Below, piece by piece: positions 3,001 to 6,000 of a stretch of DNA of 25,186 nt; positions within the stretch are counted from its first letter, which is position 1; each line of letters opens with the position of its first letter. This DNA comes from a virus (taxonomy: Duplodnaviria > Heunggongvirae > Uroviricota > Caudoviricetes), in the IMG/VR virus record IMGVR_UViG_2563366883_000011; one strand, 5' to 3'. Made by a program: the position numbers.

Positions 3001-6000
3001 TGATTTTTGCGTTCATGGATATTTATCAGGATTTATCGGTTCCGAATCCCTGGATATGTTAAGTCTTCAGCCCGCCAGTGGTGGGCACTGGCGTAAACTC
3101 AACAATGCGAGATGGCTGCCTCGCAAAGATAATCAAAGCAATGGATGCACTAAGTAAAAATAACGCTGTGTCAGATTACCTGATCGCCGAAATGGAACAT
3201 CTAATTAAAGAAATACCAAAGACAGTTGCTCGTGATGATAAAAGATTCCTCAAGGCTGCTGAAGATGCTCTTTCAACAGTGAAGCGCAGCTTAGATGCGC
3301 CGCGCGATCAAGAATAGTTTCTTTCATTTCATCTGCTGCAAGCACCTCATTTTTTGTTGGGGTGCTTTTTTTCAATTCAGCGATATAGCACTCCAGTTTT
3401 TCAATGCGTGATTCAATATCATCGTTTTCTGACCGCAATGCCGTCGGTGGCGTCTTCAGAGAACCAGTAATTATTCCCGGTAGTTTTCCTCTGTAGGTTA
3501 TCAACACATCCTGCGCCTCTAAAATTATGGGGCGCTTTTCCGGCGACTGCTCATCCCCTTCACATAACCCGGCAGCAATATCCATGAAAAACTGCTTCGC
3601 CTTCTTTTTCGCCTCAGCTTCGTAAAACTCCAGCGGGGCACCTTCAACACGATCAAGATCAATCACCACATTTGGCAACAACAGTGACGTATACCCACCC
3701 GTTTCCAGTGCCACAGTAACAGTAATCTTATCCGGGTAATTATTTATCCCTTTAACAACCAGTTCGTATTGTTTATTCATCGTCTACTCTCCCCGCGCCG
3801 CCTTACGCCGGTCTTCTTTAATTTTGAAATACAGGTTCGTCAGATATGTCAGCAGACCAAACAGCAGACTCCCCAGCACGCCTATTGCCGCCCACTGAGA
3901 CGGGGAAACCCTGTCCAGCAACTGCAGGAACCAGTAGCCCGTTCCCACCGCTGACGTGGTGTATGACACACCTGTTGTGATTTTTTCCATCTGGTACATA
4001 CCCCGTCTCCCGCAATCCGGAAGCTCACAACAACAAGTGGGGCATCAGCTCACACCGACACCCACTGCGCATGGTTACATCATCATTTCGCCGTCAGGCT
4101 GAGGCTCTTCACTACCGTCAGGCTGAGACCCGACGCCATCTGAAACAGCACTGTCATCCGCAATGCCTTCCGGCTCCGGAACAGTCGGTGCGCCCAGCAG
4201 TTCATCCAGAATGGCATCCACTTCTGCATCAAGACGCGCCTCAAGGTTCTGCCGAAGTTGCTGTTTCAGTGCGCTTCTGACTTCTTCAGAGCGCAGGACT
4301 TCCTTCACTGCCTCAGCAGTGACCAGCGATTTTATTTCTGACATAGGATTTTCTCGTTGAAAGGGGTTATTAAGAAGGTTGTTCCGGAATGAGTGGGGCT
4401 TCTGTTTTTGCTCCGGCTGACTGACTGGCGCTGATTTTCTCTGCGGCCCTTTTATCAATCTGCCTGCGCCAGGAATCGCGCACTGCCCTGTACCCACCCG
4501 AAAGAAGATACAGCACACAGACCGCCGTACAGAAGTACAGCATCACCTGATGAATAAATGTCATAGTTTCTTACCGTTATGGTTGACAATGAGAACTGTT
4601 TTCATTTAAAAACCGATATACGAAAGCATCTTTTCTTTACATTCTCCATTGGGATTACCTCCGCCAGCTTCCGTTCCTGCCGCTGGCGGTTTTTTTTTGC
4701 CGGTTATGCTGATGCCCGGCTTTCGTTAACTTTGACTGTGACCGTATCAAGCAGTACCGGATACGTCGCTTTTGTCCCCGTGATATCTGTCAGCGTCAGC
4801 GTATCTGCTGTAAAGCCATCATTTGTCCACATCACAAGGTCAAATGCCGTCTGCTCTGCACCATCAATCACCGGAACAACTCTTTCGCTGTTATTTCCCG
4901 CAAAGCGGAAAACAACCGTATGCCAGTTATGGTCAAACGTACCAAATGTACCCAGTTGTGCATTCGAGGAGCCCTTCTGGTGCATCAGATTAAGATTTGA
5001 TGTATCCGTCTGAAGGAAGAATGATGCCAGCATACTGTTTGCTGTCGCGCCTGACGCCCACTGCGACACCGGCCAGTAGATACCAAAGACAAACTGTCCG
5101 TTCACCAGCTCGCTTCCATCCGGAATTTTGAACCGTACGGCAATTTCCCCCCCCTTGCTGAGAAGATTTTTTGCCTCCTCCACTGCAATAGTACGGAACA
5201 TTTTCCAGGACGTCAGTTTACCGGGCTGTTTTTCCAGTCGCAGCGCTTTCCGTCCACCGTCATCAGTCACAGTGCCTTTGCCGCCGGAAGCGCCCCACTG
5301 CTGCTCTGTCAATGCACCATTTCCACTGTTCGCATCATATTCAGCCACCGTCCTGGTACTGCTCACGGCCTCATCATGACCAGTACCAGCAACACCGCCA
5401 TCCTGCGGTTTCTCAACATCCGGTGTCCCCGGACTGACAGGCGTTGTACCACCCGACTGCGGTGCGCTCTGCCCGGTAAGGAACGATAATGTCCGCCCGG
5501 CGTACTGCAAAATGGCACCTGCCAGGCGGTCTGAAACAAGGCCTCTTCGCGCCCATGAACTGAAGTGCGTTTTACGATCGGCTGACGTCCAGTTACTGGC
5601 AGTGCGTGACGCAGCGCCATAGTATCCCGCCGGGATAATGTCCGGATCTTCTGACGGCTCGTTTGTCGGCACATTCACACCATGCTCATCCGTCATCAAC
5701 GGCACAAAGTGAATATTCTGCGCAGCTTTTCCTTTATACCCACCGTAAACCGCCTCATACGGCGCTGCATACCTTTCCTTCCAGTAGTACGTGGTATCAC
5801 CGCAAATCCACGGGACGCTGGCCGTTGTCCCGCCAGTACACTGCTCTGCCACATCTGCCAGTTCCGTACGGAACTGATTTACCATGGCAAGGAAAAGCGC
5901 ATTGTGTTCTGCATGTCTCCCCGAACTGACATCTTTTTCTCCCTGCATCCAGATCACTGATAACAGCACGTTCTTCGGATTTTTCTTCAGGGCCGCACGG

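Follow-up and report, generated by a model that had tools for sequence, protein, structure and literature searches.

Analysis of the interval between the holin gene S and the endolysin gene R (positions 3017-3783) in the virus sequence IMGVR_UViG_2563366883_000011 of IMG/VR (25,186 nucleotides, the whole of this stretch being referred to as the window) showed that it probably consists of two parts of different origin, namely, a truncated chimeric late gene of the YdfR family and a 5'-deleted, moron-like unit in the reverse orientation. The interval is a product of phage mosaic evolution; its parts belong to known kinds and do not make up a new system. The window belongs to an Escherichia coli lambdoid prophage; its positions 2400-4100 are 100% identical to the chromosomes of E. 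coli CP55_Sichuan (NZ_CP053731) and JNEC-KY203.

The lysis genes are located on the minus strand in the order DUF826 gene, S21-type holin, 176-aa open reading frame (ORF), lysozyme, ~490 nt of small ORFs and Rz/Rz1. All components of a phage 21-type cassette, namely, the PF04971 holin, the lysozyme with a signal-anchor-release (SAR) segment and the nested Rz/Rz1 pair, are present; the SAR character of the endolysin is putative, judged from the N-terminal weakly hydrophobic segment MNAKIRYGLSAAILALITAGASAP alone. The interval and its two borders include the following features.

3784-3999, minus strand: S21-type class II holin (pinholin family), 71 aa (Pfam PF04971, E 7e-33; 'class II holin family protein' in the Prokaryotic Genome Annotation Pipeline, PGAP).
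3787-3794, minus strand: Shine-Dalgarno-like GGGGAGAG for the 176-aa ORF, inside the holin 3' end (direct sequence reading).
3250-3780, minus strand: 176-aa ORF, YdfR/DUF1327 family (ORF list and Pfam).
3442-3780, minus strand: DUF1327 domain of the 176-aa ORF, residues 1-113 (PF07041, homology to YdfR of prophage Qin).
3376-3441, minus strand: probable native helical segment, residues ~114-135, ...RSENDDIESRIEKLECYIAEL (alignments with 296- and 329-aa relatives; predicted helix 113-138).
3250-3375, minus strand: tail of the 176-aa ORF, residues ~136-176 and stop codon, read from the strand opposite the terminator and the last 22 codons of the small gene.
3017-3375, plus strand: reverse-oriented moron-like small-gene unit, ~360 bp here and ~460 bp when intact (alignments; coincides with the GC trough).
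2483-3016, minus strand: 177-aa endolysin, a phage lysozyme whose N-terminal segment is SAR-like and rich in Ala/Gly (PF00959, E 1.5e-24; PGAP 'lysozyme').

By homology, the 176-aa protein is a member of the YdfR/DUF1327 family, which is common but poorly understood. The protein matches PF07041 (DUF1327) over residues 1-112 with 133.2 bits against a cut-off of 25, matches phrog_2091 with E 3.5e-84, and is 46% identical over residues 1-74 (E 3e-22) to YdfR of Qin, where the gene order is essQ, ydfR, rrrQ. On identical DNA, PGAP annotates a 'YdfR family protein' restricted to the first 114 codons, as a pseudogene 'incomplete; missing C-terminus'. A previous interpretation of this DNA, made from the sequence alone (the sequence-only reading), had assigned the protein to no recognised family and had regarded it as cargo, with Qin ydfR as a different occupant of the same slot. 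The family label was in fact already available; Qin ydfR is homologous to the 176-aa ORF and is therefore not an alternative cargo, and the real cargo is the plus-strand unit.

The minus strand reads GGGGAGAG TAG ACG ATG at the junction of the two genes: the holin stop codon TAG (3784-3786) is followed by the 3-nt spacer ACG and by the ATG of the 176-aa ORF (3778-3780). The tight spacing and the ribosome-binding site in the holin 3' end, both noted by the sequence-only reading, are thus confirmed at 3778-3794. The YdfR-family gene would accordingly be a late gene, co-transcribed with the S21-type lysis genes and translationally coupled to the holin.

Among GTDB species representatives, DUF1327 was found only in E. 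coli, E. ruysiae, E. albertii, Shigella and two contigs of metagenome-assembled genomes. These two contigs (L111, assigned to Veillonella parvula, and L113, assigned to Bacillota) carry a Qin-type ydfR locus with 46-49% identity over residues 1-74; their match statistics resemble those of an E. coli locus, and they are therefore most likely misbinned E. coli DNA. The homologue search yielded 282 DUF1327 clusters at 90% identity, and all displayed source names were Escherichia or Shigella.

Alignments indicate that the 176-aa ORF is a truncated chimeric allele lacking the C-terminal module of ~150 aa of its 296- and 329-aa relatives. The protein corresponds, at 84% identity, to residues 1-176 of the 329-aa form, ending right after ...KEHLQQP, and the C-terminal module (FAAFxDYCRKVMSRNLAECF...LKVRI) was not found downstream in any frame, since tblastn with the long forms finds only residues 1-176. 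The right boundary of the foreign unit at ~3375 corresponds to codon ~136 of the ORF. Residues 1-135, comprising the DUF1327 domain and the helix, would be native, and residues from ~136 to 176 would represent the antisense strand of the neighbouring unit. The antisense-derived segment is absent from the 296-aa forms and is carried in frame by the 211- and 329-aa forms, which resume the native sequence (EKKRRDEQFAAF...) after ...CAGCAGCCT. DNA homologous to the tail forms the 3' end and terminator of the small-gene unit on two sequences that lack a DUF1327 gene, one from Citrobacter and one a metagenome contig.

In the most economical reading, the small-gene unit entered a YdfR-family gene, and a fragment of it was later kept as a linker in the long forms. 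We infer this direction from the conservation of the C-terminal region of the small protein in genera without DUF1327 among the GTDB representatives and from the existence of 296-aa YdfR forms without the antisense segment. In the window itself, the moron-like unit would have replaced the C-terminal module of YdfR. The reverse possibility, derivation of the 3' end of the small gene from ydfR, was rejected: the C-terminal region is retained by the homologues of Salmonella, Serratia and Xenorhabdus, three genera whose GTDB representatives yielded no DUF1327 gene (of these three, the Xenorhabdus locus was checked for the absence of a neighbouring DUF1327 gene), and the 296-aa YdfR forms do without the segment. 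The reuse of a terminator and a gene end, in antisense, as coding sequence would be an example of phage mosaicism creating protein segments.

The strongest competitor of this interpretation, which we hold to be unlikely though still live, is that the 176-aa ORF is a dead pseudogene, the leftover of a 296- or 329-aa gene destroyed by the insertion, with a product, if any, devoid of function. The PGAP call and the accidental antisense origin of the tail are in line with such decay, as are frameshifted forms of 148, 162, 182 and 194 aa in many related loci. The pairwise ratio of non-synonymous to synonymous substitution (dN/dS) of the DUF1327 N-domain (3442-3780), based on small counts and mosaic sequences, is 0.4-1.5, with 24 non-synonymous and 5 synonymous differences between the window and the related locus L037; these values fit either an arms race or relaxed constraint, which keeps the pseudogene reading in play. 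However, the start codon, Shine-Dalgarno sequence and frame are all intact, and alleles of exactly 176 aa persist at 72-81% identity, one of them with another N-domain variant. Furthermore, forms consisting only of the N-domain (103-116 aa), tightly coupled to both neighbours, are abundant, with clusters of 759, 464 and 152 members, and residues 1-72 of Qin YdfR are enough for binding RNase E (PMC13232886).

The latter study (PMC13232886, RNA Biol 2026) is the source of functional data for the family: Qin YdfR was found in a two-hybrid screen, its residues 1-72 were sufficient for the RNase E interaction, Rne1-598 co-purified with Strep-YdfR, and RNA co-purified as well. A literature search on DUF1327, or on morons together with the lysis cassette, returned nothing specific beyond this paper. 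Residues 1-74 of the window protein are exactly the part common with Qin YdfR, which favours an accessory role at RNase E or RNA over that of a component or regulator of the lysis machinery. With modest confidence, and by analogy, the 176-aa protein may thus be regarded as a soluble accessory, made late with S and R, the N-domain of which would act on RNase E or RNA and would not be part of the lysis machinery.

The AlphaFold2 (AF2) model of the 176-aa protein has a mean predicted local distance difference test score (pLDDT) of 59; residues 1-73 fold into three strands and a helix (pLDDT of 62-87 as block means), residues 73-117 have pLDDT below 50, and two long helices are predicted besides the N-domain. 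No hydrophobic segment was recognised in the protein by sequence reading. Searches with PADLOC defence models gave only noise, with no E-value under 0.006 for the 176-aa and small proteins and the remaining ORFs of the slot, and NCBIfam contained no informative model, its only hits (E 0.065 and 0.19, far below the cut-off) being on the 329-aa form. A match to a PARP1 helix (E 0.007) in a profile search of PDB sequences was discarded as spurious.

A dedicated regulator of lysis, of the antiholin type or a timing factor acting on the pinholin or the SAR endolysin, is improbable. The position between S and R, the coupling to S and the restriction of the gene to S21-type cassettes of Escherichia and Shigella would suit such a role, but the protein lacks a hydrophobic segment and is modelled only as short strands and amphipathic helices, the cassette works without the gene in many phages with contiguous S and R, and the sole experimental data point to RNase E and RNA (PMC13232886).

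The plus-strand unit has, as far as can be read from alignments and folding, the anatomy of a moron, with a promoter that is a candidate only. It is represented by the following elements.

3023-3072, plus strand: conserved upstream blocks (TTATCAGG ... CCCTGGATATGTTAAGTCTTCAGCC), candidate promoter region with the -10-like TATGTT at 3055-3060, kept in the E. coli, Citrobacter and JGI copies.
3073-3093, plus strand: leader hairpin CGCCAGTG-GTGGG-CACTGGCG (folding; compensatory changes in Citrobacter).
3078-3317, plus strand: 79-aa ORF with a GTG start (ORF list).
3124-3132, plus strand: site of a 100-bp deletion, the junction falling in the remaining copy of the 9-bp direct repeat CAAAGATAA (alignment against intact copies).
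3126-3317, plus strand: remaining 63 codons and stop codon of the small gene (KIIKAMDAL...APRDQE; phrog_18136).
3340-3374, plus strand: predicted intrinsic terminator with a 10-bp stem (3340-3349/3358-3367), an 8-nt loop and seven T residues at 3368-3374 (folding and covariation).

The 79-aa ORF and the 176-aa ORF are convergent and overlap by 68 nt (3250-3317). The terminator hairpin folds with -15.5 kcal/mol (z = -4.0; 0 of 200 shuffles as stable), and the GC content is 0.41-0.445 in 200-nt segments spanning 3000-3499 versus 0.52-0.56 in the endolysin and holin. The overlap on the opposite strand, the hairpin with its T-run and the AT-richness had all been described by the sequence-only reading and were borne out. 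Neither ORF is a chance frame, as each has homologues elsewhere.

The plus-strand ORF matches phrog_18136 with E 5e-41, but only at profile positions 18-87 of 87. Intact copies of the small gene encode 83-93 aa across the family; those of E. coli encode 87 or 91 aa and have AAGGA ahead of the ATG (e.g., WP_021565043.1 of strain G1/2, NZ_CP060083, 2950405-2950680). The dN/dS of the non-overlapping part (Nei-Gojobori) is 0.03-0.25, with a proportion of synonymous differences (pS) up to 0.74, and length differences within the family fall between codons, for example, as a 12-nt indel. These substitution patterns mark the small gene as a real gene under purifying selection at the protein level. The product has no informative family hit in Pfam, NCBIfam or PADLOC searches, and its AF2 model consists of three helices with a mean pLDDT of 62.

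The distribution of homologues characterises the unit, at the sequence level, as an independent mobile gene, sporadic in prophages of Enterobacterales. A Citrobacter prophage homologue, 70% identical, is located upstream of the holin and divergent from it, with no DUF1327 gene nearby; a homologue on a metagenome (JGI) contig, 66% identical, lies in an unrelated context, also without a DUF1327 gene; the Xenorhabdus copy is opposite to a methyltransferase-holin-Rz block, again with no DUF1327 gene nearby. An exhaustive search with a hidden Markov model yielded only nine clusters at 50% identity, which makes this a tiny family; Salmonella enterica (diarizonae), Serratia marcescens and Xenorhabdus cabanillasii are among the sources. 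No relatives were found in the scan of GTDB species representatives. Among 5426 complete E. coli genomes, the unit is present in 73: intact in 28, with the deletion of the window in ~12, and as a 3' fragment only in the rest.

The E. coli, Citrobacter and metagenome copies have DNA in common from the upstream blocks through the leader hairpin and ORF to the terminator. Compensatory changes are seen in the leader stem, CGCCAGTG/CACTGGCG in E. coli versus CGTCCATG/CATGGACG in Citrobacter, and the terminator stem reads AAGCACC/GGTGCTT in E. coli, AAGCGTC/GACGCTT in Citrobacter and AAGCGTC/GGCGCTT in the JGI contig. The leader contains the conserved motif GATGGCTG and a mini-ORF encoding MRDG followed by a stop codon. 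Citrobacter and Xenorhabdus differ very little in the ~40 nt just upstream of the small-gene ATG (motif ATGAGGGATGGCTGATTACCTC; L105 3961-4003; L115 2960-3002; window 3104-3124), despite the divergence of the proteins, which are 28% and 71% identical to the E. coli protein. A second leader hairpin at 3107-3124, predicted in the window and the JGI contig, is absent from the Citrobacter and Xenorhabdus copies and is not claimed. The orientation against the late operon, together with the terminator of its own, suggests expression in the lysogen, and the intact small gene would then encode a lysogen-expressed accessory protein.

The copy in the window is not an intact protein-coding gene. In a clean 100-bp deletion between two copies of CAAAGATAA, it lost its ribosome-binding site (AAGGA), its ATG and codons 1-27, which encode LFDRIFTLELQVGFLLP, according to the alignment the conserved N-terminal segment of the family. 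As a result, the 79-aa ORF of the sequence-only reading consists of 63 native codons and 16 former leader codons; it is a remnant of the 87/91-aa gene, and GTG 3078, located in the stem of the leader hairpin, is not the native start. With the loss of the ribosome-binding site, ATG and N-terminal segment, the small gene is most likely no longer translated into a functional protein. The deletion allele occurs in ~12 complete genomes, where PGAP annotates nothing at this place, and in five IMG/VR contigs; the deletion alleles are 98.5-99.6% identical to intact ones and therefore recent. In annotation, the deletion allele should carry no gene call for the 79-aa ORF. Transcription of this allele could still yield an RNA that ends at the terminator.

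It is highly improbable, however, that the plus-strand unit acts as a cis-antisense RNA (~3066 to 3374) that pairs with the late mRNA, from the YdfR-family ORF's 3' end into the sequence preceding R, and so tunes the expression of lysis genes. In its favour, the upstream blocks, leader hairpin and terminator are kept despite the truncation of the ORF, the deletion allele is present in the genomes and contigs listed above, and the leader has diverged less than the coding sequence when Xenorhabdus is compared with Citrobacter. Against it, purifying selection on the protein is strong in this family, copies occur without a lysis gene opposite, the deletion alleles are recent, the predicted RNA would miss the R start codon (3014-3016), and Rfam 15 gives no match at the gathering score over 2900-4100 (best E 0.23).

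Several observations weigh against the favoured interpretation, i.e., a chimeric but still functional YdfR-family gene beside a moron-like unit. The N-domain dN/dS values could mean relaxed constraint in a decaying gene. The N-domain is just 46% identical to Qin YdfR, so RNase E binding may not carry over to it, and few transcripts were altered by YdfR overproduction (PMC13232886). The structure models of both proteins are of low confidence (mean pLDDT 59 and 62), and Foldseek against PDB and BFVD returned nothing with E <= 0.001. Consensus scans revealed no strong sigma-70 promoter for the small gene. Finally, the deletion places the frame of the mini-ORF (ATG 3105) in fusion with the remaining small ORF, and this in-frame ATG could in principle yield a 70-aa fusion product.

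The variability of the slot between S and R was analysed in two samples: 80 IMG/VR loci carrying a DUF1327 ORF, and 80 IMG/VR loci chosen solely by a holin at least 97% identical to that of the window, the endolysin being in view in 70 of the latter. In the first sample, the DUF1327 ORF is located directly after the holin and before the endolysin wherever the locus includes each, and its length is 114, 148, 162, 176, 182, 194, 211, 268, 296, 325, 329 or 330 aa; these variants sit between near-identical holins and endolysins. The gap to R is 36-55 nt for the long forms, 233-536 nt for the truncated forms of 148 to 211 aa and ~50 nt for the 114-aa forms with the N-domain only; ~450 nt with a reverse ORF (type C, see below) separate the ORF from R in the 268- and 330-aa loci, e.g., L035.

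In the second sample, the slot is empty in 11 of the 70 loci, carries a DUF1327 gene in 49 and has other content in 10. Sequence of the C-module without the DUF1327 N-domain was found in nine of these ten: five intact 185-aa genes for a coiled coil plus C-module, one 213-aa variant with the type C ORF behind it, and three copies that are split or shorter at the N-terminus; the tenth locus, with a gap of ~600 nt, was left unclassified. The 185-aa genes (L138, L156, L176, also L117 and L145) encode a coiled coil and the C-module (MNHEEMNQRFSRLENEIAELNKK...LKVRI) without a DUF1327 domain. Since genes with the C-module only exist, the 296- and 329-aa proteins look like fusions of two separable modules.

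BLAST with an artificial R|S junction showed that S and R are directly contiguous in many Shiga toxin (Stx) phages: a single piece spans the junction in the matches H67-71, and in the two-piece matches H80, H90-98 and H101 the stretch covered on the record is just 7-9 nt longer than that on the query. Complete E. coli genomes contain 8830 holin places versus 6138 places of the DUF1327 N-domain. These contiguous loci and counts show that the YdfR-family gene is common but optional and that the slot is truly variable, in agreement with the insert in a 21-type S-R-Rz cassette that the sequence-only reading had proposed. The opposite case that it had itself named, a near-universal cassette component beside an unconserved plus-strand ORF, holds only in part: the family is very common, but it is not universal, and the plus-strand ORF family is clearly conserved.

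Besides the window's own small ORF (type A), reverse ORFs beside R encode 86 aa (type B, phrog_2572; L005 and PhiR5_1, i.e., L002 3729-3989) or 104 aa (type C, phrog_1853; L035 and L080). The window-type leader hairpin precedes the reverse small ORF in L005 and L035 and was not detected in the type C loci L080-L083, and the promoter-like upstream blocks were demonstrated for types A and B. The label 'DUF1823' of the type B ORF in PhiR5_1 was rejected, as its Pfam match (E 0.023) fails the threshold. The presence of three unrelated reverse small ORFs identifies the R-proximal side of the slot as a recurrent landing or exchange site, so the suspicion of a recurrent variable site, already voiced by the sequence-only reading, was well founded.

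A bolder extension, which we put forward only tentatively and hold to be doubtful, is that the S-R junction is a dedicated exchange point, at which reverse genes presumed to be expressed in the lysogen (phrog_18136, phrog_2572 and phrog_1853) are swapped behind one leader hairpin; that the antisense of the terminator and last 22-23 codons has been fixed as a linker of 38-41 residues in the widespread 211- and 329-aa proteins; and that, given the reported RNase E binding by the N-domain of YdfR, the slot encodes a modular, fast-evolving modulator of host RNA decay made at lysis.

Thousands of prophages of E. coli and Shigella, among them Stx phages, have a YdfR/DUF1327 gene within their lysis cassette. 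The results describe the family as separable modules, the gene as optional and its 3' side as a hot spot for reverse small genes. The alleles with no gene, N only, C only, N plus C, and N plus a reverse gene form a natural set for comparing lysis timing, burst size and RNA stability, and the RNase E-binding lead becomes testable in a natural phage context. The slot-level picture is thus relevant to researchers of both lambdoid lysis cassettes and RNase E.

The remaining part of the cassette, downstream of R, contains the following features.

2392-2360, minus strand: predicted strong 15-pair hairpin and T-run in the endolysin-Rz gap.
2144-2359, minus strand: 71-aa ORF in the endolysin-Rz gap (phrog_1115, E 6e-47).
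1524-1991, minus strand: Rz (ORF list).
1586-1771, minus strand: Rz1, nested in Rz (ORF list).

The gap between the endolysin and Rz (1991-2483, ~490 nt) is a second interruption of the cassette. On the other side of the holin, the DUF826 gene (4075-4518) has 147 aa with a GTG start in the ORF list and only 89 aa (~4075-4344) in PGAP; the DUF826 Pfam match covers residues 59-131 of the 147-aa ORF, and the long start is probably spurious. Further upstream, two copies of the small RNA STnc100 (6892-7101 and 7379-7584, minus strand; Rfam gathering score) and a match to the anti-Stx2 small RNA AsxR (6836-6888, plus strand; exactly at the gathering score of 63 bits) were found, and this region (6836-7584) is the Q-to-lysis region typical of Stx-like prophages. 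No stx gene is annotated in the record of identical DNA over ~1-10100 of the window. On the minus strand at 15015-15203, a C4 antisense RNA (RF01695, 82 bits) adjoins isrK (RF01394, 62 bits), a pair representing a P1/P7-type immunity (c4/icd-ant-like) module.

Phage proteins targeting RNase E or the degradosome include T7 gp0.7, T4 Srd and phiKZ Dip. Their likeness to YdfR may be a functional analogy only, and no similarity of sequence or fold to them was found; YdfR binds the catalytic N-terminal half of RNase E, with an effect on RNA decay that is so far minimal (PMC13232886). Qin YdfR (P76160) is the one family member with demonstrated binding to RNase E (PMC13232886); like the window protein, it has the DUF1327 N-domain, the PGAP label 'YdfR family' and a slot between an S21-type holin, essQ, and a lysozyme, rrrQ. 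Qin YdfR has 103 aa, and its stop codon overlaps the rrrQ start, whereas the window protein has 176 aa with an extra helix and a tail of apparently antisense origin, and its ORF is separated from R by 233 nt of foreign DNA. Of the 296- and 329-aa YdfR-family proteins (phrog_1085), the 329-aa ones match residues 1-176 of the window protein, including the presumed antisense-derived segment of 41 residues, but both kinds go on into the C-module of ~150 aa, whereas the window allele ends at ...LQQP.

The moron concept reportedly goes back to Juhala, Hendrix et al. in 2000, with bor and lom of lambda as examples. Like morons, the plus-strand unit is a small extra unit present in some otherwise similar phages, with a lower GC content, a factor-independent terminator and varied contexts; unlike them, it lies inside the lysis cassette in the reverse orientation, overlaps the upstream late gene and, in this copy, is inactivated by the 100-bp deletion. 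The S21-R21-Rz/Rz1 cassette of phage 21, known from the work of the Young laboratory, consists of a pinholin and a SAR endolysin. The cassette of the window resembles it in the PF04971 holin, the lysozyme with an N-terminal Ala/Gly-rich segment and the Rz1 nested in Rz, and differs from it in being interrupted at S-R and again at R-Rz, where ~490 nt with small ORFs and a hairpin are located.

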